Position numbers and translations under genes: made by a program. Shown here in pieces: positions 45,846 to 63,606 of a DNA stretch of 64,000 nucleotides; the first letter of the stretch is position 1; the number at the start of each line of letters is the position of its first letter. The stretch is taken from the IMG/VR virus record IMGVR_UViG_3300033498_000048, positions 160,001 through 224,000 of that record, one strand, 5' to 3'. The notes beneath the pieces are model-generated. The model worked only from the letters and a program-made list of their open reading frames with translations. It searched no databases and was not told the DNA's origin. Source of the DNA: a virus. Taxonomy: Duplodnaviria; Caudoviricetes.

Positions 45846-46934
45846 TTATGTACCATCGCTGAAGAATCCAAATATTAAATGATTGGATTCTTCATTGTTT
45901 AAATAATTTTCACGCATTGACATTCTAGTGTCTAAATTTGTTAAATCGTAAAAATAGTCTTGACTTGTTAGCCATGCAAATATAACTAAGGTCATTACAA
46001 TATCATCGTGTTTACCACGTTCAGCTTCATAGGAAGTTCCCTTCTTAATAAACATAGTCAACTCTGTAATTGTATTGTAATCTACTAATTCTAAGGTATC
46101 ACTTTCAATTAGATTTTTTAATGTACTACATCCTATTAATTTGGTCTTTTTAGTTTGTCTTATTCCAACAATACTTGAATCTGTTATTATCGTATCTCCC
46201 TGCTTAGATTTTGATGTTAGCATATTTTCATATTCATATTCATAATACAATATGTTTGCTACTATTGTTCCAACACTATTGGATTCAATTACAATATAAG
46301 CATCATTATACTTTTTCGAGATGTGATATGATTCATCTGCAAACATAAAAGGAACAATTTGATTGTTCCTATAAACAGCAACTTGTTTATATCGCTTCTC
46401 AGTGACATCAATTATTGATATTACAGAATAGTCTTTGCCCATTCCCTCAGCAACATCAATAATTGAAATGTACGAATTACCTTGAATTGGATGCTCATAA
46501 ATGTATAAAGAATCGTTGATAACTTCTAATGGTTGTTTGTGGGTTAATTGTTGTAATTTCTTACCTGATATTAATGTACCAGAACTTCCAAGGAAATTAC
46601 AATTGTGACTGAGTATTCCATTAGTGTAATAAACACTATCTGTTCCAACATCAATTAAATCATACATTTCAATTGGAACATCTATCAGCTCTTTGTCAAT
46701 AACAAAACAACCATCCATATTAGTATCAACAAAATCACCTATAACCAACTCAATTGCCGTTTTTATTCCATCAATGGTAACTAATGGATGATTATCAGAA
46801 CATACCAAGTTAGTTCCATTAGAAAAACTTAACTTGATTTGCCTATCTTTGTTAATTTTATTAATCCCAATAAACGGTTCAAACCCATTAGGTGTTAAAA
46901 CTGTTAATTGTAAGTTGTTTGTTAATGTTGTCAT
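45846..46934 (-). CDS. gp17: terminase large subunit piece C (IntC-2 plus nuclease domain)
   Basis: After SHN|C come CNFLGSSGTLISG, DVAEGMGKDYS, IESN, HDDIVM. Confidence 0.95.
   Translation of the reverse strand: MTTLTNNLQLTVLTPNGFEPFIGINKINKDRQIKLSFSNGTNLVCSDNHPLVTIDGIKTAIELVIGDFVDTNMDGCFVIDKELIDVPIEMYDLIDVGTDSVYYTNGILSHNCNFLGSSGTLISGKKLQQLTHKQPLEVINDSLYIYEHPIQGNSYISIIDVAEGMGKDYSVISIIDVTEKRYKQVAVYRNNQIVPFMFADESYHISKKYNDAYIVIESNSVGTIVANILYYEYEYENMLTSKSKQGDTIITDSSIVGIRQTKKTKLIGCSTLKNLIESDTLELVDYNTITELTMFIKKGTSYEAERGKHDDIVMTLVIFAWLTSQDYFYDLTNLDTRMSMRENYLNNEESNHLIFGFFSDGT
46602..46934 (-). mobile_element. atypical split intein C-fragment 2 (111 aa), AceL-TerL-like
   Basis: VLTPNGF...LVCSDNHPL...MYDLIDV...YYTNGILSHN|C. 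Confidence 0.92.
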
Positions 46935-46949
46935 TATTATTCCATATCG

Positions 46950-48299
46950 TTATATGACATTGCAATTCAATCTATTATTTGTTGGATATACTGAAACCTT
47001 ATCAATAACATGACTATCAATTATTATTGAGTGTATTGTTCTTCCTATAAACGATTGTTTGTTTAGCCTTTCAACATATATTTTAACCCCGTTTTGCGAC
47101 TCGACTGATTTCTTCAATCTGTGTTTTAGTGGACTCTTTAATACCATGCAATCACTCGTAATTCCATTATACAATTCAATTATTTTATTTAATATTTCAC
47201 ATCCAATTATACTTTTACCAACAACTATTGGAATAGTTAAATTTGAATTAAATGCTAAACTAATAGCAGCATCATATATTAAATTGTTTGATATTTCAAA
47301 ATCGCGAGTACAATATTCTGGAGTTTGACTATTGTTAATTAATTGATATAAATCTCCAAATGTAATATTGTTACAAATTGAATTTTCGGATTTAATTATA
47401 ACTTCGGTATTAGCGGAACAACAATCATATTCTTGTGAGAAATTTTGTGTCCCAATATTACTTTCGGTTGTTTGTCTCCACGCTTCATCGCGTTCTGGGT
47501 GGTCATACCACAAATATTTACTCCTAACAAACTCATTTCTACCCTGTTCAGATTCAATCCACAGTTTGTAAAACAAATTCATACCTTTTGGAGTAGACGT
47601 GATTATCACCTTAGTTGTTTTTCCAGATGATATTACTGGGTAGGTTGATTCAAAAAATTCAACATCATTGTCAATATGGGCGAACTCATCACAGTAGAGT
47701 GTTCCAACTGATTTACCCCTGATGGAACTTGATGATGTTGCTGCACTAAAACACTTTGAACCATTCGCCAGTGTGATACTTGTTTTGTTCCAAGTTACAA
47801 CTCCAGGTTTTAAAAACCAAGGCAACTCCTCAAACATCTTACATAAACGGTCTAATATTTCTGCGGAAGTAGCTCCCTTATTTGCTAATATTCCAATCGA
47901 CTTATTACTATTGAATATTGCCTCATATAACAAATAGGCTGCTGCTGTTGTTGTATTGTGACTTACTATTCCATTTGAATAATATTGGTGTGATTCAGAA
48001 TCAACTTCAACATCATACATATTCTCGTATTCAGTTGTATTAGTAATTGATATTACTTTTGATGTACCGTTAATAGTTTTAATCACATCACCAATTATTA
48101 AGTCTTTAACAAATACTTCGGAATTGTATTCTGACATTACTATATGCGTATCTGCACACTCTAATTTTGCTCCACAATCAAACTCAACAACCCATTTTTC
48201 ATACGGAACAGTTTTCATTACATTTGTACAATTTACCCAACCTTCTGGGGTAAATACTTCCCAATCTGTAATTGGAATAACCCTCTCAAACTTCCTCAT
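46950..48299 (-). CDS. gp17: terminase large subunit piece B (IntC-1 + ATPase core + IntN-2 + extra tail)
   Basis: SHN|TTTAAAYLL, ILANK, IRGKSVGTLYCDEFAH, STPKGMN, FSQEYD|CCSANT. Confidence 0.95.
   Translation of the reverse strand: MRKFERVIPITDWEVFTPEGWVNCTNVMKTVPYEKWVVEFDCGAKLECADTHIVMSEYNSEVFVKDLIIGDVIKTINGTSKVISITNTTEYENMYDVEVDSESHQYYSNGIVSHNTTTAAAYLLYEAIFNSNKSIGILANKGATSAEILDRLCKMFEELPWFLKPGVVTWNKTSITLANGSKCFSAATSSSSIRGKSVGTLYCDEFAHIDNDVEFFESTYPVISSGKTTKVIITSTPKGMNLFYKLWIESEQGRNEFVRSKYLWYDHPERDEAWRQTTESNIGTQNFSQEYDCCSANTEVIIKSENSICNNITFGDLYQLINNSQTPEYCTRDFEISNNLIYDAAISLAFNSNLTIPIVVGKSIIGCEILNKIIELYNGITSDCMVLKSPLKHRLKKSVESQNGVKIYVERLNKQSFIGRTIHSIIIDSHVIDKVSVYPTNNRLNCNVI
47334..47423 (-). 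mobile_element. atypical split intein N-fragment 2 (about 30 aa)
   Basis: CCSANTEVIIK...NITFGDLYQLI parallels short TerL-type IntN (C..xT.V...I.DLY). The end coordinate is approximate. Confidence 0.85.
47955..48299 (-). mobile_element. atypical split intein C-fragment 1 (115 aa)
   Basis: EVFTPEGW...LECADTHIV...MYDVEV...YYSNGIVSHN|T. Confidence 0.92.
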
Positions 48300-48837
48300 T
48301 TATGATTCCATTTATCAACTTCAATGTATCACATTGGTCACTAGGTGTGTCATTATTTACTAATATAGTATTAGCAAAATTTGATTTTAATATATTGCGT
48401 ATTTTAGTTTTTCTACCCTTTAAGAATGTTTGATTTTGGTTACTACCTCTATCCAAATACCGTTTTTCCAAGTCTGTTGATTGTAAACATATAATATGTA
48501 AGGTTGTGTTTGCAATCTTAGAATAATACTCGAATAAACTAGATGACGATAACCTATCCCCTTCAAAAATAATTGTTGAATTTGTATTAATATCATCTAT
48601 TATAAATTCTTTAAATACTGGCATTACATTCATAGCCAACTTGTCTGTTCCAGAAAATGTTTCTGTTGGATTAGAGTAATCGCCAACTATTTTAACAACA
48701 CCAATATCATGGTACTTAACCAATTTCATATACTTCTTCATATCGGTTACATCAACGTTCAATGATTCAATTAACCGTTTCATTAAAGATGTTTTCCCAG
48801 TTCCAGGCTCGCCTATTATTGCTATCATTTTTTGCAT
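48286..48837 (-). CDS. P-loop kinase of the 5-hydroxymethyluracil DNA kinase type
   Basis: IGEPGTGKT, FSGTDKL, IIFEGDRL; adjacent to the aGPT-Pplase gene. Confidence 0.75.
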   Translation of the reverse strand: MQKMIAIIGEPGTGKTSLMKRLIESLNVDVTDMKKYMKLVKYHDIGVVKIVGDYSNPTETFSGTDKLAMNVMPVFKEFIIDDINTNSTIIFEGDRLSSSSLFEYYSKIANTTLHIICLQSTDLEKRYLDRGSNQNQTFLKGRKTKIRNILKSNFANTILVNNDTPSDQCDTLKLINGIINEEV

Positions 48838-49973
48838 ACAAATCCCCTAAGTGATTGATTGTTTGTTTTGTAATAAGTATCATTATAATCATTTTTAAAA
48901 CAATCGTGTTCAAAGTTCAACATTACAACTTGACCCGTGTTCCTAAAATGATTTTGTTTGTCCTTGTGTACACCTTTACATCTTGGGTTATATTCAAATA
49001 GTAAATACTCAGGTAAGCAATTATGTCTAATATTCCAGAATAAATCAAAACGTTTATTCCATTTAATTTCAGCATATTTTATTCTATCGTGAAACATATC
49101 ATTATACACATTTGGATAACGTCTATTTTTCCTATACCACGATTTGTAGCAGCACAAGGTTGATTCTAATGTAAAATAATTTACATCATTAATATAATTT
49201 TCTTCCTTGAACCTACCAATACATTCGCTTAACAGTACACCACCTTCAATTGTTAATGCTTCAATAATACCTTTATCATATTTACCATCAAAATCTGGAT
49301 TAGATTGTGAATGCCAATCTAAATCGTCACGCCCCAATACCTTGCACAAACCATTCCTATGTGATTTACTACCATTCAAATCATGTAAAAACAATGAACT
49401 ACAGCAAATATTTAAGCCTATTATTTTCAAATATTCTAAATATGAAAATGTCGATAGTCTCCCGAATAAGTAAAACTTATCAATTACAGTTTTCCATACT
49501 GTATCAAAATTATCAAATTGGTTGTCGGTATTGCACATTGATGTGAAAAAATTATGTTGAGTATCGTATTTAGAGATTATTTCTTTATAATTTAGAATCA
49601 TATTCTCTAATTTATTTTTTACATATCTCCTATCTGTATCCCAACCAAACTTAGTATAGTTTTCTCTGAAAAAAACAGAAAATTTGTCAATATCGAGTGT
49701 GTTAAAATCACTAAAATTCTCAAACAAAATCCATGATGTAATAATATTTTGACAACAACCATTTAAAAACACCAACCAATATTGCTGCTCTATATTTAAA
49801 TTGTGTATTTTAATTAACTCTGGAATGACATAATACACTGCCCCAGGGTGTGATTTATATTTTAAATGGAATTGATAAAACCTAATAAATGTTTCACGCC
49901 GATATTTGTGTTCCCTGAAATCAGAACCAACAACCAAGTTTGAATCATTGTTGCTGTTAATTTTAAATACCAT
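48825..49973 (-). CDS. aGPT-Pplase2 / amino acid:DNA transferase-like protein
   Basis: DTDRRY, FGRLSTFSYLEYL, SKSHRNGL, FTLESTLCCYK, RRYPNVY. Confidence 0.8.
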   Translation of the reverse strand: MVFKINSNNDSNLVVGSDFREHKYRRETFIRFYQFHLKYKSHPGAVYYVIPELIKIHNLNIEQQYWLVFLNGCCQNIITSWILFENFSDFNTLDIDKFSVFFRENYTKFGWDTDRRYVKNKLENMILNYKEIISKYDTQHNFFTSMCNTDNQFDNFDTVWKTVIDKFYLFGRLSTFSYLEYLKIIGLNICCSSLFLHDLNGSKSHRNGLCKVLGRDDLDWHSQSNPDFDGKYDKGIIEALTIEGGVLLSECIGRFKEENYINDVNYFTLESTLCCYKSWYRKNRRYPNVYNDMFHDRIKYAEIKWNKRFDLFWNIRHNCLPEYLLFEYNPRCKGVHKDKQNHFRNTGQVVMLNFEHDCFKNDYNDTYYKTNNQSLRGFVCKK

Positions 49974-51375
49974 AATTTGTTCCTGTAAAATATTGTAATA
50001 TAGGTTTATGATATTGCTCTAACCAATCTTTGCCATTATCTTTAGTTAGTAAGAACTCATACCACTCCCTAGCACATTCATAATTACCATCTTTTTCTAT
50101 TATATTACCAAAAGAATTTGTTCCAACTCCATTCCAACCTTTGATATTTGAATTGTTTTTCCTCAACTCAACAAATTCTTTTCGGGCTTGCTCATATTCA
50201 TATGTGCCTAGTGATAACATCCCTTCATGTAAAAATGCTATCACACTAACACGTTCAGCATCGGGTTCATGTAACACTATCTCAGTATTACCATGTAAGC
50301 CTTGCATATTATTGATTAATAGTAAATCGCGGGGTCTAATATCAATTGCATATCCAATTTCAGGTAATACTAAATGTCCACCAGAATAATTATCATTTTT
50401 GGATAATACACATAAATTAGCAAAACCTTGTTCCATGTTTGCTGGGTCATAATGTGCTGAGGTTCTGAAATTTTTATTTACAGTAATAGTGGTAAATGGT
50501 GTGTTAGGTACAATGAACTTATTATCTATTTTATCACAAGCTGCTAGTTGATTAGCATACCTAATTGGTAATAACTCTTTGAATAATTGTGCCAGCCTTT
50601 CTAAAAATGGAAAAGATAATTTAAATTTTTCATAGTTGTTTTTTGTGTATGCCGTTTCACGCCCAAACGGAATCCTTGGGTATCTATCATAATATCCAGC
50701 AACCCCAGAGTTTACAAAGTTTGCGTATATTGTTTTTGATATGTACGATTTAACCAATTTACAATTATCTACAATAGTTGTAAATTCATATTGTCCAGAC
50801 TTAATTGTACTAATTAATTCAAAATACCACAATTCAAAATTAAAATTATTTATAATAACTTTATTAGATATGTAAACTTTATCGGTATATTCTGGTTCAC
50901 TTTTATACACCTCAAATATTGATTCCAACTGTAATATTGTTTCAGTTGTAATTCTTTTACAATTAATTAAAATATCCAGTATAGAAAGTTCTTGTTTTGT
51001 TGCTCTGACCCTATTACCATGTAATCTAGTGTTTATTTTTCCACTAGCATTACCTCGATTATCTGTTGGAACTGCTGCGTCAGCCAACCCATCATACCCA
51101 GATTCAACTTCAGATTGAGTGAATGCGTTTTTTCTAAACTTGAATAGTATGTATTTTTCTGGATTTGAATTAACACACCTAATACAATCATCTTTTGTTT
51201 GGCAGTTATTACCTTTAGCATATTTTAATAACCCTCCAGGGTTACAAGAATCATATAGATATAAGTCGGTATCTTCAGTTATTAATGTGTGGTATGATGT
51301 ATCATCTAACCACTCCCTAACCAATTCTTGTTTGTTAGTATAATCTTTAATTGTTAAAACTATTTGTTTAACCAC
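49963..51375 (-). CDS. TET/JBP-family 2OG-Fe(II) dioxygenase
   Basis: TPFTTITVNKNFRTSAHYD (HxD), GGHLVLPE, LHGNT, RVSVIAF; GATAAATA at 51409-51416. Confidence 0.85.
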   Translation of the reverse strand: MVKQIVLTIKDYTNKQELVREWLDDTSYHTLITEDTDLYLYDSCNPGGLLKYAKGNNCQTKDDCIRCVNSNPEKYILFKFRKNAFTQSEVESGYDGLADAAVPTDNRGNASGKINTRLHGNRVRATKQELSILDILINCKRITTETILQLESIFEVYKSEPEYTDKVYISNKVIINNFNFELWYFELISTIKSGQYEFTTIVDNCKLVKSYISKTIYANFVNSGVAGYYDRYPRIPFGRETAYTKNNYEKFKLSFPFLERLAQLFKELLPIRYANQLAACDKIDNKFIVPNTPFTTITVNKNFRTSAHYDPANMEQGFANLCVLSKNDNYSGGHLVLPEIGYAIDIRPRDLLLINNMQGLHGNTEIVLHEPDAERVSVIAFLHEGMLSLGTYEYEQARKEFVELRKNNSNIKGWNGVGTNSFGNIIEKDGNYECAREWYEFLLTKDNGKDWLEQYHKPILQYFTGTNYGI

Positions 51376-51505
51376 ATCAATGCTCCTTGTTTTTGTGTAT
51401 TGTTGTAGTATTTATCACAATAATCAAACGCAACATTTATATTTACACTACCACAACAGTCTGCTAAAATTGTACATTTAAACGTATTAATTTGGAGTCA
51501 TCATT

Positions 51506-52063
51506 ATGTTTGGATTTATTGTTTCGGTATTGTTATTTGTGTTTTTATATTTTATGATACCAGATGATGGAGTAACTATTAAACCAGATGATGGAGTAAC
51601 TATTAAACCTGATATTGGAATATTTGAATCTGATTTAGATTGTATAAGTGAGGCTATTTACTTTGAAAGTAGGGGTGAACCAGAGAGAGGTCAACAACTT
51701 GTTGCGTGGTCAATTATCAACAGAAGTATTGTAACTGGATTAAGTATGTGTGAAGTGGTACATTACCCAATGCAATATTCATATAGGAATTGTATTAATC
51801 CAGATACAAACAAACCTATAAACGCAAAAGAATGGAACAAGATATTGAACAAAGTTTGTCCAGTATTAGTAATGTCGGATTTACAAAGCAAAGCAAACTC
51901 AGAAAGAATTGCAATGGAAGTTTTAGATGATTATAACTTACATGGAGCAACAGAAAACACAACACACTTTCACCATATTCGATTAGGTGGAGTTCGATAT
52001 GGTGGAACAAACTCACAACTTATTGGAAATCAATTGTATTATTCAGCTCCAGACGCACTTTGA
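51506..52063 (+). CDS. SleB-type cell wall hydrolase with N-terminal membrane anchor
   Basis: CISEAIYFESRGEP..GQ.LVAWSIINR...QYS. Confidence 0.85.
   Translation: MFGFIVSVLLFVFLYFMIPDDGVTIKPDDGVTIKPDIGIFESDLDCISEAIYFESRGEPERGQQLVAWSIINRSIVTGLSMCEVVHYPMQYSYRNCINPDTNKPINAKEWNKILNKVCPVLVMSDLQSKANSERIAMEVLDDYNLHGATENTTHFHHIRLGGVRYGGTNSQLIGNQLYYSAPDAL
51560..51607 (+). repeat. perfect 24-nt tandem duplication (PDDGVTIK x2)
   Basis: CCAGATGATGGAGTAACTATTAAA occurs twice in tandem. Confidence 0.9.
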
Positions 52064-52073
52064 AAAATACAAA

Positions 52074-52102
52074 TTGACAGAAATCAGCTTTAGTCATAAA
52101 AT
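52074..52102 (+). promoter_or_regulatory. sigma70-type promoter
   Basis: TTGACA-N17-TAAAAT upstream of the primase-helicase gene. Confidence 0.7.
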
Positions 52103-52198
52103 AGCTTTAGCGAATGAGTATTAAATATATAATGAATGGAAGTGAACAAATACCCATGTGTTTAACCTTAAACCTTAAACTTTTGGATTGTAGATATA

Positions 52199-55096
52199 AT
52201 GGAAACAAGAACCTATACTCAAATATTGGAATTAGATGATTCAACAATTGCCAATAAAGCTTCAATGTGTGGAATCAATTGGGCTAATATCAGAAACTTA
52301 ATTATTCCACAAATTAACATGACCTTTCAAACTGATATTGAACTATCTAAAAAAGATAAAGGACGTGTTAAAGCTTGGATTCAATGTAAACAAGATGATA
52401 ACGGTAATTCATATCCGTTAATTACCTTCAATAATTTTAACGATGGTGGTATCAGTGAAACATATACTGGTATCACTGCTATACATGGAAAAAACAATAC
52501 TAAAAAAACACAATTAAATATCAATCCAGTCGTACAACAGCCAACACAGGCAACAAATCAATTGGACACTTATAACGAATTTCATTCTATATTTGGTACA
52601 CTTCCAACGGTATCAATCAATGATGTTACTTATTTAAATAATAAGGGATTATCAATGAAAGAAGTTCCGAATACATTGGATTTAAGACGTGGAGTTGATA
52701 GTTATAATAAAAAGTTTATTGCATTTCCATTGGTTAATGTACACAATGAAATTGTAGGCTATCAAAAAATCTATGATAAGAAATTCAAACACGGAAACAA
52801 ATTAAAAGATAAAATTGTAGTATTTAAACCAAACACAAAAAATGGTAGTTTTGCAATATTGGGAACAATTACCCAACACACGAAAGTCATTTATTTGTGT
52901 GAGGGTTTAGCAACAGCATTATCAGTTTATGAATCAACTAAAGTTCCAACTATCATTTGTTTAGATTTGGGTAATGTCCATAATGTAATGCAATTATTCA
53001 ATAGCCACGAATTGATATTGGCTATTGATAATGATTATAATTACATCCACGATACACTCGAAAACTTACCACACAATGCTAAAATCATTTTACCAACTTT
53101 AAATGATATGGGAAAATGTGATTATAATGATGTGTATGTTAAATGTGGAAAACAGGAAGTTAAAAAACAATTACTATTCACACATAGTTATATTAAGTTG
53201 AATAGTAAGAGATTAGACATTAATGGATTCAATAGTGGAGTAACCTTAATTAAATCGACATATGAAACAGGAAAAACCTATAATTGTATTCAATATGTCC
53301 GTAAAAATTCAAAATTGAGTGTGTTATATATTGCACATTTAATATCATTGTGTGACCAAGCTGCTACTAAGTTTGCTATTAAAAGTTATAGCAAAGTTAA
53401 ACAGGTTAGCAATGAAAAAAGAATGAGTATTTGTATCAATTCATTGTACAAGATTATTAAGAATAATGTTGTTCCAATATTTGATATTTTAATTCTTGAT
53501 GAAATTGAGCAATTACTTGAAAGACTTGCTAATTCAAGAGCCACCGATATAAGAAATAAGGAAATGATATTCCAAGTATTAGAATATCTTGTTAAAAACT
53601 GTCGACAAGTAATTTGTCTGGATGCTGATTTGAGTAAAGTAACACTTGATTTTATAGAAGCTATTAGAAATGGTGAATCATTCACAATATATGATAATTC
53701 ATATGTACATAAGAAAACGATGTATGTGTATGAGTCTGCTGAGGAAATAATCGAATTAACACAAGAAGCTGTTAATGCAAATGTTCCAACACTGTTTTGT
53801 ACAAACACGCTTAATAGAAGTGAAACCGTGTTTGAACAAATACAATGCTCAAATAAACGGGTAATTAACTCTAAAACTACATCAACGGATGATGTAATTG
53901 AGTTTTTAGAAGACATTGATGTTCATTGTCAACAGGATTTACTAACAATTTGTAGTCCTTCAATAAGCACTGGAGTTAGTATAGAATCTGGACATTACAA
54001 ACTTAATACTGGAATATTTGTTCATAATGTTAATACTCCATTAGATGTATTACAACAATTGGAACGTGATAGAAGAACATTAGACAAACACATTTTTATT
54101 AGTCCATATTCTAATAAAATTGACAATCCTAATTATTCAGATGCAACAGATTTCACATTAAAAATGATTAGTGCTAATGGTGAAATCGTCCATAGAAATA
54201 ATAATTATTCAAAACTGGTTAATAATGTGAATAATAAAAAGATTAAATTAATGTCAAACTTTAAAGGAACATTGTTAGACCTTGCTATAAGTAAAGGCTA
54301 CAATATCATAATGGTTGAACCCAAAATAACTCCAGAAGAAAAAACACGCATAAAAAACGAACAAAAACAAATAACCGAAACACTTGAAAAGGAAAGAATT
54401 GAAATGATTGTCACTTCTAATAAAATTGACGATGAAACATATTCTAATCTTAGGGATTTACAGATTATTACGGAAGATGAACGAGCTGAAATGTCCAGAT
54501 TTGAAATGGAAACATTTTACAACAAAGATATTTCAGAAAAATTAGTTAGATTTGATAATAAGGGTAAAACCAGAAAACAAATTAAATTGTTGCGTTTACT
54601 TAAACAAAACATTGACACAATAAAAGATAGACAGAAGTGGGCATTTAAAGATGTATTCATGGAAGATGTGGACTATAGCTATCTTAGATATACTTTGTAT
54701 TCCAAGTTATTCCACCACATTGGAATTGATATAGACACAATGCAAGTAATTAAAGAACAATATTCCCATAGTGATGCTTTAGATTTTTATAATTGGGTTG
54801 CAAAAAATAAATCAGCATTTTCAGTTGTTTGGTCTATACCAGATGAAAGTAAATTTAGTGCAAATCCGTTTAAATACATTGGCAATTTATTACAAAATTG
54901 TGGACTAAAACAATCCCGAAAATACCAAAAAGTAAATGGTGAAACTTTTACATATTACCAAGTATCACAAGCCTCTATTGACTCACTTGTGCAATATGTT
55001 AATAAATCAGTTGAACCAGGAACTGAAACAAAAAAAGATGTTCCCGTAAAAACAAAAAATAAGTTTGATGTACTAAACAATTCGACTCAATTATAA
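52199..55096 (+). CDS. TOPRIM primase fused to an origin-binding-protein-type SF2 helicase (plasmid Rep-like)
   Basis: LCEGLATALS...LAIDND...DYNDV (TOPRIM); KSTYETGKT, LILDEIEQ, ICLDADL, CSPSISTGVSI, QQLERDR (SF2). Confidence 0.75.
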   Translation: METRTYTQILELDDSTIANKASMCGINWANIRNLIIPQINMTFQTDIELSKKDKGRVKAWIQCKQDDNGNSYPLITFNNFNDGGISETYTGITAIHGKNNTKKTQLNINPVVQQPTQATNQLDTYNEFHSIFGTLPTVSINDVTYLNNKGLSMKEVPNTLDLRRGVDSYNKKFIAFPLVNVHNEIVGYQKIYDKKFKHGNKLKDKIVVFKPNTKNGSFAILGTITQHTKVIYLCEGLATALSVYESTKVPTIICLDLGNVHNVMQLFNSHELILAIDNDYNYIHDTLENLPHNAKIILPTLNDMGKCDYNDVYVKCGKQEVKKQLLFTHSYIKLNSKRLDINGFNSGVTLIKSTYETGKTYNCIQYVRKNSKLSVLYIAHLISLCDQAATKFAIKSYSKVKQVSNEKRMSICINSLYKIIKNNVVPIFDILILDEIEQLLERLANSRATDIRNKEMIFQVLEYLVKNCRQVICLDADLSKVTLDFIEAIRNGESFTIYDNSYVHKKTMYVYESAEEIIELTQEAVNANVPTLFCTNTLNRSETVFEQIQCSNKRVINSKTTSTDDVIEFLEDIDVHCQQDLLTICSPSISTGVSIESGHYKLNTGIFVHNVNTPLDVLQQLERDRRTLDKHIFISPYSNKIDNPNYSDATDFTLKMISANGEIVHRNNNYSKLVNNVNNKKIKLMSNFKGTLLDLAISKGYNIIMVEPKITPEEKTRIKNEQKQITETLEKERIEMIVTSNKIDDETYSNLRDLQIITEDERAEMSRFEMETFYNKDISEKLVRFDNKGKTRKQIKLLRLLKQNIDTIKDRQKWAFKDVFMEDVDYSYLRYTLYSKLFHHIGIDIDTMQVIKEQYSHSDALDFYNWVAKNKSAFSVVWSIPDESKFSANPFKYIGNLLQNCGLKQSRKYQKVNGETFTYYQVSQASIDSLVQYVNKSVEPGTETKKDVPVKTKNKFDVLNNSTQL

Positions 55097-55257
55097 ATCA
55101 ATAGGTTAGCACTTACAACCGTTAAGGTATTATATAACTGTTCCAAATGCTAACTCGTTGTTTAATATACATAAAGTTGTAAGGTATATAAATCAATAGG
55201 TTAGCACTTACAAGTGATAGTTAATTATAAGACCAGTCAAAGTGCTAAGTCATTGAT
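55097..55257. repeat. Cluster 4 of 66-bp palindromic elements (2 units)
   Basis: 55097-55162 and 55192-55257, starting right after the stop codon of the primase-helicase. Confidence 0.92.
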
Positions 55258-55475
55258 TATTACATCATTGTCAATTATAACTGTATTTGGAATAACAATG
55301 ATGTAAATTACTTCTAAAGACCGATAATGGAGCAACTATATGTGACTATGTAAAATGTTTTTCGTGCGATAAAACACACTGGAGTGCAAATTAATGATGT
55401 TTTGTAGACTCAAGAATCATATTGATTCGGTTGAGAATACCCACACGCCTTAAGCAATTGAATCACAAGTTCGAG

Positions 55476-55504
55476 TTGACATTATAATACGAATTGTGTA
55501 ATAT
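55476..55504 (+). promoter_or_regulatory. sigma70-type promoter
   Basis: TTGACA-N17-TAATAT. Confidence 0.6.
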
Positions 55505-55533
55505 AACGTCAACTAAACCAACGGAGTATAAAC

Positions 55534-55722
55534 ATGGAACTAAAATTATACGTTTTGCGACACATAAGTGGAGCTTATATGACTAAATCAGGTGATGTTA
55601 ATAGAGGCAATCAAGCAGATATGGCAATATATACTAAACGACATTTTGCAGAGGCAAAGTTAAGACGGAATTTCACAGTGATTGAATTTGATGCACAATT
55701 AACTGAAGTAGGGATGAGTTAA
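55534..55722 (+). CDS. hypothetical protein
   Basis: ORF with GGAG SD. Confidence 0.55.
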   Translation: MELKLYVLRHISGAYMTKSGDVNRGNQADMAIYTKRHFAEAKLRRNFTVIEFDAQLTEVGMS

Positions 55723-56394
55723 ATGCGAATCATTAGACCTAATGGAATTACAGATTTATATGATTGTATGGCTGGTGTGTGTGGTATAGACCCATTAGTT
55801 ACATTAAAACACAAATCAAAATTTGACAAATGTACAATCACATCGAAAGGTGGCTTTAAATTACAAAATTTTAATTACATAAACAATATAGAAAATCCAA
55901 AAACAAGGACACAAATATATTACACTATTGTTGTTTGTGGAATACCATATGTTATTAGAAAACGTTTAATTGGCTATGAACGTAATACTTGGTCTCCAGA
56001 TAGACCAATGTTCGATAAAATGGTTATATCAAAAGAAGAGTTTTTGATGGAATTTGATAAACCATCATCCAAAATTGTTGATTATGCTGAATCACTAGAG
56101 AAGTATTCTCAACATTGGGTTGATTTTCATAAATTTTACAATTATCCAATTATGTTGTTAGAAAGCGAAACCTATGATAAAGTTAGAAGTGAATACAATT
56201 CAACTGTAAGTAGTGTTGTTCCTATGCTTAATGACTTTAAGTTCGCTCGTGTTAAATCCCCTATGGAATTATATCTCGAAATTCAAAGTTTTATGTTACA
56301 ATTGAAAAATACAAATGTTCCAGTGATTTTATCTGACTCCGACTTAGCAATTAAACACGGATTCAACAAACAGTCATTTAGAAAAAGAAAATGA
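55723..56394 (+). CDS. hypothetical phage protein
   Basis: ORF ending in the ..KHGFNKQSFRKRK pattern. Confidence 0.6.
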   Translation: MRIIRPNGITDLYDCMAGVCGIDPLVTLKHKSKFDKCTITSKGGFKLQNFNYINNIENPKTRTQIYYTIVVCGIPYVIRKRLIGYERNTWSPDRPMFDKMVISKEEFLMEFDKPSSKIVDYAESLEKYSQHWVDFHKFYNYPIMLLESETYDKVRSEYNSTVSSVVPMLNDFKFARVKSPMELYLEIQSFMLQLKNTNVPVILSDSDLAIKHGFNKQSFRKRK

Positions 56395-56468
56395 TAATGG
56401 CAATGTTTCCATTGGAAGCTAACAGAAAATAAATCAGTTGACTAAATACTTAATTTTTAATAGGAAAA

Positions 56469-56950
56469 ATGATGAAAACGTTTAAGCAATTTCTAGGTGA
56501 AGCAACAACAAGTTCATTCGGTATTTTTGACACAAAATACCTGGGTGTCAACGATGCTGAAAAAACAATTAGTGCAAACTATCCTGATAACCTTAACATA
56601 TAAAAGGTATCGAATTTTTCGATACGATTTATATGTCTGATATTATTAGAAAGGCTAGTGCTAAGTTGGACAAGTCAGGTCAAGAATCATATTTAGGTTA
56701 TTTACCCAAAGAAGATTTGTTCATATCAGGGTGGGACACATGGTCAGATGATGAGGAAGATGATTATAGAGATTTTAACCCCACCGAATCATTTAGTGGC
56801 AACTTAGCATTTGTTAAGGTAAATGATAAAGGTGTTGCCAAAGTTATTAATATCTCTGGTGACGCTGGTGATATGATGTACGGGAGTGGTGGTTCACTAA
56901 GTAAATTAAAGAAAGAATATCCTAACTTAGTTAATATTAGATTAGATTAA
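56469..56950 (+). pseudogene. frameshifted capsid-targeted protein (56469-56603 plus 56633-56950)
   Basis: MMKTFKQFLGEA... stops after 44 aa. Removing 2 nt at AACATA-TA-AAAGGT joins it to IKGIEFFDTIY-MSDIIRK of the next ORF. Confidence 0.55.
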
Positions 56951-57109
56951 AATTGGGTTAGTTTGATGTACTTACGCATTTAACGTAATGTCTATCAACG
57001 AATTAGCAAATGGTAGCAGAATCTCGACTGTGAAAATTTAGTCCAACAAAAGAAGACTATGTAATTTGATTATACACAATTGATATTTTTATATACCTCC
57101 CTTACAATA

Positions 57110-57175
57110 AACAACGAGTTAGCACTTGGAACGATTATGTAACTAATACCAGTTTCCAAGTGCTAACTCGTTAAT
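57110..57175. repeat. Cluster 5: single 66-bp palindromic element
   Basis: AACAACGAGTTAGCACTTG-N28-CAAGTGCTAACTCGTTAAT. Confidence 0.9.
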
Positions 57176-57198
57176 TTCCAACTAATACATGGGGACAA

Positions 57199-57600
57199 AT
57201 GATGGCAGTATACACAGCTTCACAATTTGATGAAAAACTATTATTATCGACAATTAAAGCTATAGATTTTGTTAAAGCTGGAGGTGATATTGATGATTTT
57301 GATGGAATAGTTCATTCTAGCTTATCAGATAAACTAAATGATATTATTAATAGGCAAGAATTATTTTATATTATTCCAATTAGAAACACATGGGAAAAGA
57401 AACAATCTAACACTTTGAGCATTTTAAATGATACTATAACATTGTTACGATATGCTATGTTTACATCGGACTTATCTTGGAAAGATTTTAAAAAATTTGA
57501 TGTTGAAATGGCTGATTGTATCAGAAGTTGTGATAGAGAATATATAATTCAATTGTGTGTTAAATGGCTTCTATTTGCAGATTATTATGATTGCAATTAA
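57199..57600 (+). CDS. hypothetical protein
   Basis: ORF. Confidence 0.55.
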   Translation: MMAVYTASQFDEKLLLSTIKAIDFVKAGGDIDDFDGIVHSSLSDKLNDIINRQELFYIIPIRNTWEKKQSNTLSILNDTITLLRYAMFTSDLSWKDFKKFDVEMADCIRSCDREYIIQLCVKWLLFADYYDCN

Positions 57601-57624
57601 CCTATTATCTAATAACCAAGAATC

Positions 57625-58203
57625 GTGAACACTAGAACTAGAATACAAACATCGAATAACTCATCAATCAATATCCACAAACAATTTTTAAATAATGATA
57701 CTGTTACATTTCTAATAAAGTATTATAAAAAATTACCATACTTCCAAGATAATTACAATTTTAATGGAAACATTGTTCAATCGCCAAGGTTGATTTGTTA
57801 TATGGGAGTTAAAAACTATTTTTACAGTGGAATTAACCATGTTCCAATTCCATTCGATAACATCACTAAAACACTATTGGATTTAATTGTGAAGTTATAT
57901 CCATACCAATATAACGGGTGTTTGATTAATTATTATAGAAATGGTAACGATTCTATTGGAATGCACACGGATAATGAATCGTGTATTGATTTATCCGTTC
58001 CAATTATAAATCTATCATTAGGTTCAAATCGAACACTAATTGTAAAGGATATTAAAACAAATGAAAAACACAAAATTCTAATGGAATCTGGTTCATTAAT
58101 TGGTATGATTGGTGATTTTCAACAAGATTGCATACACGGAATTGCAAAAGAAAAGAATATATTAACTCCTAGAATATCTATAACATTTAGAAGATTTAAA
58201 TGA
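57625..58203 (+). CDS. AlkB-family 2OG-Fe(II) dioxygenase
   Basis: LINYYRNGNDSIGMHTD, NLSLGS.R, HGIAK, RISITFR. Confidence 0.92.
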   Translation: MNTRTRIQTSNNSSINIHKQFLNNDTVTFLIKYYKKLPYFQDNYNFNGNIVQSPRLICYMGVKNYFYSGINHVPIPFDNITKTLLDLIVKLYPYQYNGCLINYYRNGNDSIGMHTDNESCIDLSVPIINLSLGSNRTLIVKDIKTNEKHKILMESGSLIGMIGDFQQDCIHGIAKEKNILTPRISITFRRFK

Positions 58204-58204
58204 A

Positions 58205-58680
58205 TACACTCATAAACACTACGATATATCAGCTAGACAGAGTTTATCTCTTTTGTTTCCGCGAGTACCACAACATAAGTTACTATATGAGGACGACACT
58301 ATTGCTAGAATTTGTTTTAGCGATAGTATATCTGGATGTTTAAGTGCAATCTCTGATAAATCACCTTGTTTATATGTTTACAAGGTGGCACACGTTTATA
58401 AAAATACAAAATTTGTTTCTGATATTCCACAGTCACACAATTAAGCGAAATGGCTATTGGAATAAGCAATCGCGACCTAATAAAATATGAACGGGTTGAT
58501 GATGCACATATAACTAATGAGGTTTGGGTATGTGAACCAGTTGGGTTAAAATTGATTGGGGAGATTGTATTATGTGGAAGCTATACATCAATTCTAACAC
58601 ATAGATTTAATAATACAAAATATGATGAAAGTTGTGTTTCCAGATTTCATATTCAAAAATCAAGTCAACCTGAGATATAA
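58205..58680 (+). pseudogene. probable frameshifted phage gene (track ORFs 58253..58444 and 58450..58680)
   Basis: PRVP...EDD..RIC.S.SI.GCL.AI and V.DA..T.E.W are motifs I recall from one phage protein family; here they sit in different frames. Confidence 0.4.
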
Positions 58681-58716
58681 ATATCATATCACAGTTAATA
58701 TTAATTAGGAGCAACA

Positions 58717-60309
58717 ATGTCATTTAGTACATTTAAAGGTTTTTTAAAAGAAGGTAGAGTTTCGTTATATGAAGCAATTAGGTTGGGGGATTTCAACAAA
58801 GCTTCTGTAATAATTGGCAAATACATAACACGGACAGTTTGTAAAACGTTTTGTTTACCCGAACCAGAGGTTGTTAAAAGTCGTGGAAAAGAATACATTG
58901 GAATTAGATATTTATTAGATGATGATAGGTCAATCAGATTAAATTGGCTTTCATCTATATCAGCAGCATCTAATCTAGTATCATTCGATTACTGGGATGG
59001 TAGTGGAGCAAAACAATTATTTCCGTCCCATCACATTGAGTTTGATGTAGACCAACAACGAACCCTAGTTAAATCATTGCCATTTATTAAAGATTTTTTG
59101 AATGGAAAGATTAAAGATAAGTCTGGATATTATGTTGATGATGATACTCTATCTGAATCACATAAAATAATTGATACTACGTTTTTGTCGGAGGCTGTAG
59201 TAACAGAAGATGATATTGTATATTCTATAAAAGGTATTATTGATGGATTATCACAAGGTGAAGACTTCTACAAACAATGCAAATCTCCAGATAGGTTGAA
59301 GTTGTATGGTAAGAATATGCGGAAAGTACAGGGGGCAATTAGAGAACTATATCCAATATTTTCCAAGTCTAAATATCCAATTGATAAACTATCAGATATT
59401 GATGTTAATTTGATATTAGATTCTGTTTTGGGTAGAAATGGTAAATCTACAACTGACGGAATAGATTTAATTAAATTTGATGTAACCCCTGGAACGCCAG
59501 AGGTTAGAGTTCCACAAGATAGTACATTAACCGATGTTGAAATTGAAAGAATCTCATATGAAGACCAATTAGAAGATTTAACAACATCAATTGGCTTACT
59601 ATTGGCAGGAGCATCACACGGATTGTTTATTACTGGCAGAGGTGGTACTGGTAAATCTGTTACTGTCAAACAAGCCTTGAATAATAATGGATTACAAGAA
59701 GGTGATGGTTATGTCAAGTTGAAAACAACTGCTACAACAGTTGGTATATATCAATTGTTATACAAATATCGCGACTCTGTGTTATTGTTTGATGATTCAG
59801 ATTCAATATTTACTGACCAAGCAACACGAAACATTTTTAAGGCTGCTACTGAGTCTGGTTCAGAAAAAAGAATGTTAATGTGGGACAAAAAATCTAGTGA
59901 TATTGTTGATTCTGATATATACGATGAAGATGACCCAGAATTTGATAGCAAATATCCAAATCGGTATGAATTTACTGGAAAAATAATATTCATATCAAAC
60001 CTTGAAATGGACAAAGTTGACCCAGATGGTGCATTGCGTACCAGAGGTAATATTTTCAATATATCGGCAACTAATGAAGAGATATATGAAAAGGCTGCAA
60101 AGATTATTATGTTCATTCCGTTGCGAGTTAATTACAATTTAGACAAACCAAAACGGTTAGAGATTCTTGAAGCTTTTGCTGCAAAAAAACGTATGGTAGA
60201 TACAGCAGACCTTAGAACATTTGAGCGAGCGTTAAATGATTCTGCTGCAATCTTATTGCAAGGTGGAGATGATAGTAAATGGAAAACGTGGATAATTAGA
60301 TACTGTTAA
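58717..60309 (+). CDS. AAA+ ATPase with capsid-targeting-like N-terminus
   Basis: MSFSTFKGFLKE; GRGGTGKS, LLFDDSD, IIFISN, ALRTR; TATAAATA at 58676-58683. Confidence 0.8.
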   Translation: MSFSTFKGFLKEGRVSLYEAIRLGDFNKASVIIGKYITRTVCKTFCLPEPEVVKSRGKEYIGIRYLLDDDRSIRLNWLSSISAASNLVSFDYWDGSGAKQLFPSHHIEFDVDQQRTLVKSLPFIKDFLNGKIKDKSGYYVDDDTLSESHKIIDTTFLSEAVVTEDDIVYSIKGIIDGLSQGEDFYKQCKSPDRLKLYGKNMRKVQGAIRELYPIFSKSKYPIDKLSDIDVNLILDSVLGRNGKSTTDGIDLIKFDVTPGTPEVRVPQDSTLTDVEIERISYEDQLEDLTTSIGLLLAGASHGLFITGRGGTGKSVTVKQALNNNGLQEGDGYVKLKTTATTVGIYQLLYKYRDSVLLFDDSDSIFTDQATRNIFKAATESGSEKRMLMWDKKSSDIVDSDIYDEDDPEFDSKYPNRYEFTGKIIFISNLEMDKVDPDGALRTRGNIFNISATNEEIYEKAAKIIMFIPLRVNYNLDKPKRLEILEAFAAKKRMVDTADLRTFERALNDSAAILLQGGDDSKWKTWIIRYC

Positions 60310-60329
60310 TCCGTGTTTGATATATAATT

Positions 60330-61097
60330 GTGAAATGGAGACATGATGTCTCCATTTCACATATGGGGAGAATAAGAAAGATGAAAGTTTACAATGTAGA
60401 TTGTTTAGTTGGAATGAAAGAAATTGAAGATAGCTCGATAGACCATATAATATGTGATTTGCCATATTTTCAGGTATTAAAGAATGATTGGGACAATGCG
60501 TGGAAATCAGGACAAGAATATTTAGGATGGATAAATCAAGTAATATTAGAATATAAGCGAATTATAAAGCCAAATGGAAACATAATATTGTTTGTGGGTC
60601 GCCAATATAGTCACAAGATATGTTCAATGTTGGATTTACATTTCACAGAGAAACGAGTCATAATATGGTCAAGAAAGCGAAACTTAAATAACTCTAGGGG
60701 AAAGGCATTATCTAGTGGATATGAATTGATTTTATATTATTGTAATGGTGTTAATGGAACATTTAATAACATAAAAATAAAACGTGAATCTAATAGAAAA
60801 GAATACACCACTGGAATATTAAAGGATGGAGTTAGTTTATCGGATGTATGGGATGATATTCCAGCATTACCTCACAATTCAAAAGAAAAATTAAAACATC
60901 CATCACAGAAACCAATTAGATTAATCCAACGAATAGTCGATTTATTTACCAATGAAAATGATATTATATTAGACAATTGTGCTGGAACAGGTACTACTGG
61001 AATAGCGTGTTTGAATGGTAATAGAAAGTTCATATTGATGGAATCCAACAAAGAATATTGTGATATAATAAATGACAGAATTACTGGCACAGTGTAA
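60330..61097 (+). CDS. second orphan N6/N4 DNA methyltransferase (beta class)
   Basis: CDLPYF, HPSQKP, ILDNCAGTGTTGIAC; true start probably MKVYNVD. Confidence 0.92.
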   Translation: MKWRHDVSISHMGRIRKMKVYNVDCLVGMKEIEDSSIDHIICDLPYFQVLKNDWDNAWKSGQEYLGWINQVILEYKRIIKPNGNIILFVGRQYSHKICSMLDLHFTEKRVIIWSRKRNLNNSRGKALSSGYELILYYCNGVNGTFNNIKIKRESNRKEYTTGILKDGVSLSDVWDDIPALPHNSKEKLKHPSQKPIRLIQRIVDLFTNENDIILDNCAGTGTTGIACLNGNRKFILMESNKEYCDIINDRITGTV

Positions 61098-62205
61098 AGA
61101 ATTGCTTAATGTTTCTAATAAGTATAATTTAGCCTCGGCTGCAAAGCACATTAAGCTTGATGTAATTAAAGCAACACAAGCATTTCCAGATAAAATAACG
61201 TTATCACAAAGAATACGAGCTATTGCTGACAATAATGCTTGTATTTGTCCATATTGTGGAAAGGTACACGGTAATCCATATCGAGATTATTGTAATCAAC
61301 AATGTTACACAAAACATACAACAGCTAATGCTATATCCAACAAAATCAATAAACTAATTCAAGCAGGTGAAATAAAATATGCTGGTTTAGTTGAAGGTGT
61401 CGATTATCTTGTTTGTCAAGTTTGTGGATGTAAGTGTCAAGATGTAGGTAAACATAGTAAAATCCATGGATTATCTGCTACAGAATATAAACTAAAATTT
61501 GGCATTAAGAAAACTAAAGCTGATATTATTTGTAAATATGGAGCAGATAATCCAGGTTATCAACATGGTGGGAAGTTTTCTAAATGGTCAAAGAATTACA
61601 TCCACGGTTATGACGAAGTTGCTCATAAAGAGTTTAAAGAAAAACAGTCTAAATGTAGGACAAACAACCCAACCAATCATTTTTCTAGGGCGCACTATTC
61701 TAGCGATGCTGAATATAGTAAAGCTCAATCCAGAGGATTAGATTATTTTATTAGAAAATATGGCGATGCTGGAATTGATAAATGGCATAATAAAAATATG
61801 AATATGCAGGTATCTCAACCAATTATGTCTTTTAAATCTTTGTGGACAAATAGAAGTGAGGTTTTAGGACATTTCTACATCCTTAAAATATCAACTGATA
61901 AAATAAAAATCGGAATAACAACAAGAAAGGTGGTGAAACGGTATTGTAATAGTGTTGATGTGATAGTTGATTTAGAATGTACAATATCTATAGCATTTAT
62001 GATTGAACAATTAACAAAACGACAATTTATAAACTTTTTAATTGATAAAAATGATGCTGTAACTGGATTTGGGTGGACAGAAACATTTAACATTAATTGT
62101 TTAGAACCGATGTTGAAATCAGTCGATACTTATGTGAATAATACTGATATGTTATCGACTGATTTCAAATCAACATTTAAGTTGAAATACCCTGACCGTT
62201 TTTAA
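61072..62205 (+). CDS. putative free-standing homing endonuclease (Zn-finger N-terminus, GIY-YIG-like C-terminus)
   Basis: CPYC, CQVCGC...HGLSATEYK.KF; FYILK...IKIGITTRKVVKRY...E.F. Confidence 0.65.
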   Translation: MTELLAQCKELLNVSNKYNLASAAKHIKLDVIKATQAFPDKITLSQRIRAIADNNACICPYCGKVHGNPYRDYCNQQCYTKHTTANAISNKINKLIQAGEIKYAGLVEGVDYLVCQVCGCKCQDVGKHSKIHGLSATEYKLKFGIKKTKADIICKYGADNPGYQHGGKFSKWSKNYIHGYDEVAHKEFKEKQSKCRTNNPTNHFSRAHYSSDAEYSKAQSRGLDYFIRKYGDAGIDKWHNKNMNMQVSQPIMSFKSLWTNRSEVLGHFYILKISTDKIKIGITTRKVVKRYCNSVDVIVDLECTISIAFMIEQLTKRQFINFLIDKNDAVTGFGWTETFNINCLEPMLKSVDTYVNNTDMLSTDFKSTFKLKYPDRF

Positions 62206-62299
62206 TACTTAGATTGAACAAATCTACAATTGTAATTTCCTCAATGGTATTTGTAGATTTGTTCCTGATTGTTAGTTTTGTTTCTGGTGACACACATTT
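62177..62299 (-). CDS. gp17: terminase piece A exon 2: Walker A Lys plus 39-aa split intein N-fragment 1
   Basis: Not in the ORF track. Manual translation K|CVSPETKLTIRNKSTNTIEEITIVDLFNLSIKNGQGIST*. Confidence 0.9.
   Translation of the reverse strand, partial: KCVSPETKLTIRNKSTNTIEEITIVDLFNLSIKNGQGIST
62216..62264. other. 14-bp perfect inverted repeat inside the IntN-1 coding sequence
   Basis: GAACAAATCTACAA / TTGTAGATTTGTTC, just past the stop of the opposite-strand endonuclease. Confidence 0.7.
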
Positions 62300-62609
62300 C
62301 AATATCTTCAGTGATATTCGCTAAATATCACCCGTTTATTAGACTGCTTTAGCTTTTCGCTAAATGTTGAGACTATATCTTAGTGTTTAATAAACACCCC
62401 TAATGTTTCGAGATTGCTTAATCCCTACGGCATATTGCCTAGTCGTTGAACTGCTTCCAGTGTGGTTACATTCCACTTAGGAAACTAGCTGCTGATTTAC
62501 CAATTCTTGATATTGTCACTGTGTTGTATTATTTCTAATACAATTGAGTAATCAAGACTCTAAGGTTGTTCCAGCAATTAAAAAGGTTTTACATGGGCAA
62601 GTTCATCCC
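62300..62609 (-). ncRNA. group I self-splicing intron (310 nt, no ORF) in the terminase gene
   Basis: P AATTGCTGGAA, Q AATCAGCAG, R GTTCAACGACTA and S AAGATATAGTCT in order. P1 AUGGGU/GCCCAU has a U-G pair at the 5' splice site; terminal G. Splicing gives in-frame RQMG|K. Confidence 0.93.
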
Positions 62610-62924
62610 ACCCATTTGTCTTGATAGTAAACATAAATTAAATCTATTTTCCTGGAAAGATTTAATCATTTTTTGTTGATATGGATATAATTTAAATTTA
62701 ACTAAACCTTCATCTAAGTTTACGATATAGACATAGTTTTCAATAAAGTAAATTATGTCAGTGGCACATTTGTAAATTTCCCTAATTTGGTCTTCAGTGT
62801 ATGATAATAGAGTTCCAGCCTTCATAAGTTTTGTATTTCCGTTGTAACAAAACTTATCTTTGTTTAGTGTTGGGGAATCTTCTACTGTTTTATGTGTGTT
62901 TATAGGAACTATTTGAGTTTCCAT
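62610..62924 (-). CDS. gp17: terminase large subunit piece A exon 1
   Basis: YNGNTKL, EIYKCATDIIYFIENYVYIVNLDEGLVKFKLYPYQ...RFNLCLLSRQMG; ATG at 62924 after a GGAG SD. Confidence 0.93.
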
Positions 62925-62956
62925 GTTTGTGTAATCTCCAAATAACAATATTTAGC

Positions 62957-62985
62957 TTGACAAAGGCATTGATGTTAATTATAAT
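62957..62985 (+). promoter_or_regulatory. sigma70-type promoter, divergent from terminase piece A
   Basis: TTGACA-N17-TATAAT perfect match. Confidence 0.8.
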
Positions 62986-63604: not shown

Positions 63605-63606
63605 TT

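Follow-up and report, generated by a model that had tools for sequence, protein, structure and literature searches.

Fractured phage genes for conserved enzymes are broken by a split intein, and a free-standing gene for a Vsr-like or GIY-YIG endonuclease lies between the two parts; one of the described loci, from Lake Gatun, is a gp17-like terminase (Dassa et al. 2009, PMC2677866). Each of those loci has a single split, and its three coding regions lie on one strand with spacers of 27-51 nucleotides (nt) (PMC2677866). Here, we describe the terminase gene (TerL, gp17) of a Caudoviricetes phage, IMG/VR record IMGVR_UViG_3300033498_000048, in a 64,000-nt window (bases 160001-224000 of the record; positions below are those of the window unless stated otherwise). 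The gene is encoded in three pieces, A, B and C. We give a probability of about 80% to the reading that the sole TerL of this phage is built from three polypeptides, through one RNA splicing and two protein trans-splicing steps and from two transcription units, as its sequence predicts. The feature is real and probably functional, with splicing as a prediction.

TerL proteins are also known hosts of atypically split inteins, namely AceL-TerL, GOS-TerL and Cat-TerL (PMC11766414; PDB 6dsl). In this type of split, block B lies in the C-terminal half (IntC), which has about 100-170 amino acids (aa), and the N-terminal half (IntN) has about 15-40 aa (PMC13014065). The mycobacteriophage intein TerL1-a occupies the classic P-loop site between the Lys and Thr of Walker A (Kelley et al. 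2016, PMC5050341), and in jumbo gut phages terL is broken by self-splicing group I introns beside free-standing endonuclease genes (PMC12880540). The parts of the locus described here are of known kinds. We did not find their combination in the literature searched: no natural protein joined via two split inteins and no three-piece terminase, in a search that left subscription papers mostly uncovered and is weak evidence.

Anatomy of the three pieces

The exteins of A, B and C, all encoded on the minus strand, join to 534 aa that are colinear with TerL of Acidovorax phage ACP17 and of cyanophage P-TIM40 and align without a break across RQMGK/TTT and QEYD/CNFLGS. The first-pass annotation of this DNA had proposed that joining A to B restores Walker A and that joining B to C restores QEYD/CNFLGS. 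Both joins are as it described, and the joined product aligns gap-free to T4-like TerLs at the two junctions. Its boundaries for piece A (62924-62610 plus 62299-62177), piece B (48299-46950) and piece C (46934-45846) agree with the open reading frames (ORFs) and their translations (Table 1). The B extein matched Terminase_6N (2.7e-23) and the T4 gp17 structure (3.9e-36) and was 59% identical to the ACP17 TerL, and the C extein matched Terminase_6C (1.4e-16) and the nuclease domains of RB49 gp17 (3e-44) and T4 gp17 (6e-42). The exteins are 59-69% identical to those of relatives and contain no frameshift and no stop. Pieces B and C are separated by a spacer of 15 nt. In ACP17 itself (L002), a 660-nt unannotated gap (1627-2288) lies between a small terminase-like gene and the annotated TerL start.

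The record is 305,782 bp long, carries direct terminal repeats and is rated complete; the G+C content of the window is ~30%. T4-like structural genes are present, including the sheath, gp15 and a gp16-like small terminase. An intact gp17 elsewhere in the genome had been raised as a possibility by the first-pass annotation, and the complete 305.8-kb genome holds no second terminase. The whole-genome profile search returned one Terminase_6N and one Terminase_6C match, the TerL_ATPase family matched nowhere in the genome, and each TerL part was single-copy by tblastn. A megablast search of B-C against GenBank phages gave no match.

Both inteins keep their catalytic residues: Cys1, the block B His, the terminal His-Asn and the +1 residue. 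Cys is the first intein residue after RQMGK in A and after QEYD in B, at positions fixed by gap-free alignment to intact TerLs. IntC1 has a block B with the motif CADTH, a terminal SHN and Thr+1, and IntC2 has CSDNH, a terminal SHN and Cys+1. By sequence, the two are class 1 inteins (HINT fold) with predicted splicing activity. Intein 1 is split into 39 + 115 aa and intein 2 into ~33 + 111 aa. Because the block B His sits in both IntC halves, both are assigned to the atypical type, split near the N-terminus, with the caveat that the IntN2 polypeptide has 124 extra residues.

The two inteins differ in how close they are to described ones. The matches of IntC1 in the PDB were distant (VidaL 5e-6, CatC 2e-5), and it is 38-54% identical to the IntC1 of relatives (given here by L and P numbers). 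IntC2 matched CatC (6dsl_B), a consensus of the AceL/GOS-TerL inteins, over its full length (7.8e-20, chain residues 13-117), with SH(A)/C aligned with SHN/C, and it is 46-49% identical to the IntC2 of L079, L081 and L133. Since IntC2 matches CatC full length with Cys+1 aligned, intein 2 is placed by sequence in the known AceL-TerL / GOS-TerL / Cat family of TerL inteins. For the N-terminal halves, IntN1 displays a motif, C..x.T...RNK.T....I..(D/E)(F/L), common to L080, L081, L083, L168, L171 and L173, and IntN2 was aligned with that of L079, L081, P0005, P0006 and P0007. The first residue of intein 2 is Ser in relatives, like GOS-TerL, and Cys in this phage, like AceL-TerL.

Piece A is further interrupted by an element that we identify as a group I intron, as the first-pass annotation had suggested, from its model score, the U.G pair of P1, its terminal G and the junction that restores the frame. 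The RF00028 match (62649-62347, minus strand) covered the full model with 56.1 bits (cut-off 50) and an E-value of 4.8e-12. P1 is formed by AUGGGU and GCCCAU, and its U.G pair marks the 5' splice site; the last intron base is the G at 62300, and the fold z-score was -4.84 against shuffled sequence. The intron separates the Gly codon of Walker A from the Lys codon, and the intein-1 site follows 3 nt downstream. The spliced frame reads RQMGK-C, as in intron-less relatives. Without splicing, translation would end at RQMGGMNLPM and a stop, and neither the Walker A lysine nor IntN1 would be made. A ribosome-binding site (GGAG) lies ~10 nt 5' of the exon 1 ATG.

This intron is shared with relatives. 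L181/L182 carry it at the identical site (52.4 bits), and between the window and L181 there are four compensatory pair changes, with P1 invariant. P0126 and P0127 (the latter 79% identical) are likewise truncated directly after RQMG. Exon 1 is 87% identical to that of P0126/L181 and 65% to that of L168. The intron was seen in no further relative among those examined, and there is no other group I intron in the genome. In a relative from run X2, the first intron base is changed (62609) and 1 nt is deleted (62602).

Regarding piece B, the first-pass annotation had described both inteins as having a short IntN and a long IntC. The atypical type, the IntC lengths of 111-115 aa and the 39-aa IntN1 stand, but B runs 157 aa past QEYD and not ~30. 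The first ~33 of these residues are IntN2-like by comparison with relatives, and the remaining 124 form a tail. In relatives, IntN2 has 25-34 aa and then a stop, whereas the frame in the window is open for 124 residues longer. The tail is 26% identical to B extein residues ~8-113 (BLASTP 9e-8), a profile of 95 other TerLs gave it 18.9 bits (no more than 9.4 for any of 2000 shuffles), and its ESM Atlas model presented TM scores of 0.69-0.73 to Terminase_6N clusters. It gave no Pfam or PHROG match, has no Walker A and has lost the catalytic acidic residue (Glu) after Walker B (IIIDS). From the BLASTP match, the home-made profile and the Atlas model, we read the tail as an incomplete second copy of the ATPase core that has diverged. 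In P0007 and P0023, a GIY-YIG domain is fused after IntN2 in the same slot, which is a precedent for an extended IntN2.

Table 1. Positions of the terminase pieces and of neighbouring features in the window
Feature	Position	Strand	Description and basis
Piece A, exon 1	62610-62924	-	N-extein M1-G105, ends ...LCLLSRQMG (GGT), first part of Walker A; translation
Group I intron	62300-62609	-	310 nt, no ORF; Rfam RF00028
Piece A, exon 2	62177-62299	-	Walker A Lys106, 39-aa IntN1 starting with Cys1, stop
Hairpin	62113-62168	-	16-bp perfect hairpin directly past the A stop; candidate 3' end or terminator element, putative function
Homing-endonuclease-like gene	61072-62205	+	Free-standing, 377 aa; convergent with A, with a 29-nt overlap at the 3' end of A
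TET/JBP oxygenase, amino acid:DNA transferase (ADDT) and P-loop kinase operon	48286-51375	-	Pfam
IntC1	47955-48299	-	115 aa, piece B N-terminus; blocks B, F and G of intein 1, ends SHN
Piece B extein	47424-47954	-	177 aa, TTT...QEYD, ATPase core after Walker A; Pfam Terminase_6N
IntN2	47325-47423	-	~33 aa, starts with Cys1; aligned with the IntN2 of relatives, end point approximate
Piece B C-terminal tail	46950-47324	-	124 aa and stop; read as a diverged copy of a TerL ATPase segment
IntC2	46602-46934	-	111 aa, piece C N-terminus; ends SHN
Piece C extein	45846-46601	-	251 aa, CNFLGS..., end of ATPase domain and nuclease domain, stop; Pfam Terminase_6C

The gap between A and B and its counterparts in relatives

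IntN1 and IntC1 are 13.9 kb apart, with ~17 genes between them. The first-pass annotation had placed the first piece 14 kb away; the distance is right, but A itself is not displaced. On the strand of A, the gp15 gene is found 3 kb upstream, with the neck genes further on, and the sheath gene (gp18) comes after C. Since A still follows gp15, its ancestral place, and B-C still precede gp18, the T4 order gp15-gp17-gp18 is kept, A has not moved, and the 13.9 kb are an insertion that fills the gap of intein 1.

Both TerL intein sites recur widely, and three-piece TerLs are common in public metagenomes, judging from sequence. Among the best 119 homologues (clusters) of B, middle pieces with IntC1 and IntN2 accounted for 32, with the IntN2 end either short (26 of 119) or with a long extension (6). 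The other architectures were IntC1-B-C (67), IntC1-B-(contiguous intein 2)-C (10), contiguous intein 1 (7) and others (3). Three-piece TerLs with both of the same sites were found in L081, L171, L173, L179 and L180. In L081/L082, the parts are side by side: A with IntN1, a Vsr-like endonuclease gene, IntC1-B-IntN2 and IntC2-C. The arrangement in L171, L173, L179 and L180 resembles this one.

The separation of A from B is graded among these phages: the pieces may be adjacent or ~1 kb apart with an endonuclease gene, and the distance is 4.6 kb in L168/L169, exceeds 10 kb in L177/L178 and reaches 13.9 kb in the window. The exteins of L168/L169 are ~65% identical to those of the window, and seven unrelated genes stand between B and its upstream partners, A with IntN1 and the endonuclease gene; in L177/L178, A was not found within 10 kb on either side of B. 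In L181/L182, from two further samples (87% identical in A exon 1, 79% in DNA), gp13-gp14-gp15 are followed by an opposite-strand island, the isolated A and then opposite-strand genes, with the endonuclease gene down to a 65-aa remnant. The layout that the first-pass annotation suggested looking for in related genomes is there, as an isolated A in L181/L182 and as an A 4.6 kb from B in L168/L169. Its view of an extreme and undescribed architecture stands insofar as this combination was not found in the literature searched, and it was overstated given the 32 middle pieces in 119. The arrangement in the window stands at the far end of a graded series that is common among uncultured T4-like phages, and it is not a one-off architecture. 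Because the layout recurs in relatives and every piece is single-copy, it is not due to chance.

Of four loci that looked like A alone (L017, L018, L073 and L076), L017 and L018 turned out on inspection to be other, diverged terminase types, and all four were left out. The gene upstream in L079 is unrelated to the kinase of the window. In L177 (7635-9504) and L178 (7461-9534), a gene-free stretch of 1.9-2 kb lies upstream of a 156-166-aa ORF of unknown function that abuts B; these stretches gave no sign of an A piece, an intron or an RNA family. L179 (14579-18238) carries a portal gene (1219 aa) with an Intein_splicing domain inside Portal_T4.

Starting from A, the gap contains the opposite-strand 377-aa gene, a plus-strand block and then the minus-strand modification operon. 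The N-terminal 235 aa of the 377-aa gene are homologous to the Vsr-type endonucleases that occupy this site in relatives: residues 3-235 are 42% identical (E 3e-68) to the L080 endonuclease between A and B, and the match to the L081 endonuclease was 2e-16. A ROS_MUCR-like zinc finger is present. The C-terminal 140 aa are not the Vsr/DUF559 domain of the L080 endonuclease; they are T5orf172/GIY-YIG-like in the ESM Atlas only, with no Pfam match. In the X2 relative, this gene has an in-frame 18-nt insertion at 61327. L168 (5421-6659) and L169 (5753-6934) carry the same endonuclease N-terminal module by A with different C-terminal domains, T5orf172-like in L168 as in the window and Vsr/DUF559 in L169, in otherwise near-identical phages, which looks like a nuclease-domain swap from the sequences.

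The plus-strand block encodes a DNA methyltransferase, a 530-aa protein of unknown function, an AlkB-like repair protein, a 965-aa primase/replication protein and an endolysin-like protein. That a simple inversion gave rise to this opposite-strand block was considered and rejected, as it would place the endonuclease-like gene far from A and not adjacent to it. In the operon, the matches were Tet_JBP (3.3e-25), ADDT (1.2e-22) and Ploopntkinase3 (2.1e-7), and this compact set is predicted to be a DNA base hypermodification pathway. With its last codons, the kinase gene runs 14 nt into the start of B.

The only gp16-like small terminase gene (PF11053, 31 bits) is outside the window, at 258895-259281 of the genome on the plus strand, ~36 kb from A and 50 kb from B-C and on the other strand from them. 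With this gene remote from both loci, the whole packaging module is scattered. Three more replication genes of the window bear inteins. UvsX (4627-6108, minus strand) has a contiguous intein, the gp44 clamp loader (12712-14106, minus strand) carries an intein, and DNA polymerase B is fractured (8299-10647 plus 6141-7205, minus strand) with a Vsr-like (MTES_1575) gene at 7186-8241 between its parts. Altogether, there are at least five inteins within the 64 kb.

Proposed assembly and the alternatives

Piece A would be transcribed alone; opposite-strand genes flank it on both sides. Its mRNA would lose the group I intron, which is predicted to be self-splicing. B and C are probably on one transcript with the TET/ADDT/kinase operon upstream. 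IntN1 of A would pair with IntC1 of B and join K106 to Thr+1, completing Walker A, and IntN2 of B would pair with IntC2 of C and join QEYD to the Cys+1 of CNFLGS. The product would be a 534-aa T4-type TerL. We infer both splicing reactions, the lack of cross-reaction between the inteins and the transcript structure. As to its origin, the locus may have begun with the arrangement A-IntN1 / endonuclease / IntC1-B that L080/L081 still have, as a fractured gene whose gap then took up cargo step by step. Distance between the pieces is no obstacle to a trans-splicing gene. The intron and the neighbouring endonuclease-like gene would be additional selfish elements that target the same conserved codons of the P-loop.

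Several observations weigh against this assembly. The locus was found in no RNA run searched. No promoter for A was identified, and the sigma-70 scan was no better than chance on the minus strand. IntN1 and IntN2 have a common motif and IntC1 and IntC2 are ~31% identical, so a cross-reaction giving an A-C product or a cyclised B is possible. Selection for orthogonality of the two inteins is expected, since cross-reaction would cyclise B or join A to C. Moreover, no other sequence seen has the 124-aa tail that follows IntN2 in this phage, and the tail might slow or block the reaction between B and C. Finally, the sole contig that bridges A to B comes from the probable source sample, and the second assembler worked on data that are not independent.

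Around A, the cyanophage-type late motif CTAAATA occurs 5' of the gene and is not enriched in the window (19 found vs 21.7 expected). The terminator scan found none, with no T-tract at the A 3' hairpin; perfect hairpins lie just beyond both converging stop codons, those of A and of the 377-aa gene. A perfect sigma-70 consensus (TTGACA, 17 nt, TATAAT; 12/12) at 62957-62985 on the plus strand faces away from A, toward plus-strand genes starting at 63021.

The layout could be an assembly artefact, with A truly beside B and 14 kb wrongly joined in, and the origin of the only bridging contig invites this suspicion. We consider it extremely unlikely. A 67,881-nt Logan contig from run X1, the probable source sample, covers window positions 44500-64000 with zero differences and an even depth of 22, so that, on the misassembly raised by the first-pass annotation, a different assembler gave the same 19.5 kb, though from the same data. 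The flanks of A (the gp15 side, the opposite-strand islands, the endonuclease remnant and a homologue of the 530-aa gene) are syntenic in L181/L182, from two other samples, and A is also apart from B in L168/L169. At the other end, the start of B overlaps the kinase gene and leaves no room for A. For the A locus itself, three other metagenomes gave short contigs, identical or nearly so, which cover both splice junctions and the stretch where A and the endonuclease-like gene overlap.

Two further readings accept the layout and dispute its outcome. The pieces might assemble non-covalently, with the intein halves as mere docking domains and the terminase working as a complex, and the fragmented NrdA of phage Aeh1 offers a precedent for such assembly (PMC3045599). 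The intein halves would gather the pieces regardless, the IntN2 tail might hinder catalysis, and peptide-bond formation is a prediction. However, all class 1 residues are present in both inteins and kept across diverged relatives, IntC2 is close to the experimentally active Cat/AceL-TerL family, and in a complex of this kind Walker A would remain interrupted after its Lys, with 154 aa of intein inside the P-loop between that residue and the Thr; we find it quite unlikely. It is very unlikely that the gene is decaying, which would make the terminase non-functional and the record a defective or helper-dependent element. The exteins are conserved and uninterrupted, the same layout is seen in a phage 79% identical in DNA, identical sequence occurs in several unrelated metagenomes, and the complete genome with its terminal repeats has a full T4-like structural module and no other terminase. 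What speaks for decay is that the genome is metagenome-assembled and has no cultured host, that the tail of B resembles recombination debris and that the endonuclease gene cut to a 65-aa remnant in L181 points to regional turnover.

Going beyond the three-piece TerL restored by splicing, the three-way split might work as a logic gate. A separately transcribed, intron-gated A would have to coincide with the hypermodification-B-C transcript, tying packaging to DNA modification, and the pseudo-ATPase tail would be functional, for example by holding B inactive or by stopping its self-cyclisation until C arrives. The lineage would then supply an orthogonal natural pair of atypically split inteins. 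We offer this as a speculative idea that is unlikely to hold.

Significance and comparison with known systems

Ligation of three segments requires two orthogonal split inteins, and many phage lineages, in which two atypical ones appear to be paired on one essential protein, offer a panel of candidates. Short-IntN (atypical) inteins are prized because the short half can be chemically synthesised. At the level of genome organization, the pieces of a trans-spliced gene are free to drift apart, and the gap can then accept incoming genes, which in this phage comprise an endonuclease-like gene, genes for replication and repair and the operon for DNA hypermodification. Besides, three kinds of selfish elements –intron, intein and free-standing endonuclease-like gene– are stacked within one codon of one P-loop. 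Gene callers see no full-length TerL in such genomes, so terminase-based phylogeny and completeness checks misjudge them.

In cyanobacterial split dnaE and other remote split-intein genes, the halves of an essential enzyme are encoded at distant loci, made from separate transcripts and trans-spliced. Those genes belong to cellular genomes and have one intein with the canonical split (long IntN, short IntC). The TerL described here is likewise an essential enzyme encoded at distant loci; it differs in being from a phage and in having two atypical splits plus an intron.

Like the fractured genes, this is a conserved phage enzyme split by a split intein. Relatives L080 and L081 correspond exactly to that pattern, and the DNA polymerase of the window is another example. 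The TerL of the window departs from it, with two splits, 13.9 kb and ~17 genes in the first gap, an opposite-strand endonuclease-like gene and an added intron. It also falls outside the definition of Dassa et al. at the B/C break, where there is no endonuclease gene and only the 15-nt spacer.

Intein 2 shares with AceL-TerL, GOS-TerL and Cat-TerL a short IntN, an IntC of ~105-115 aa and a T4-type TerL host, but here an in-frame 124-aa TerL-like tail follows IntN2, and in the literature searched no described member shares its host protein with a second split intein. Intein 1 is at exactly the same K/T position of the terminase Walker A as TerL1-a. The mycobacteriophage inteins are contiguous and in Terminase_1, whereas intein 1 is atypically split (39 + 115 aa) and in Terminase_6 (T4-type). 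In the jumbo gut phages, the terL fragments are co-transcribed and repaired at the RNA level; in this phage, one of the three breaks would be RNA-repaired and two protein-repaired.

The closest parallel to the middle piece is engineered. Tandem trans-splicing has been designed for three-segment ligation (PMC12707363) and in transposon constructs (PMC11185735), and the middle segment has the form IntC-insert-IntN and requires two orthogonal split inteins, as piece B would. Those are laboratory designs, whereas the arrangement described here is natural and recurs in many phages.

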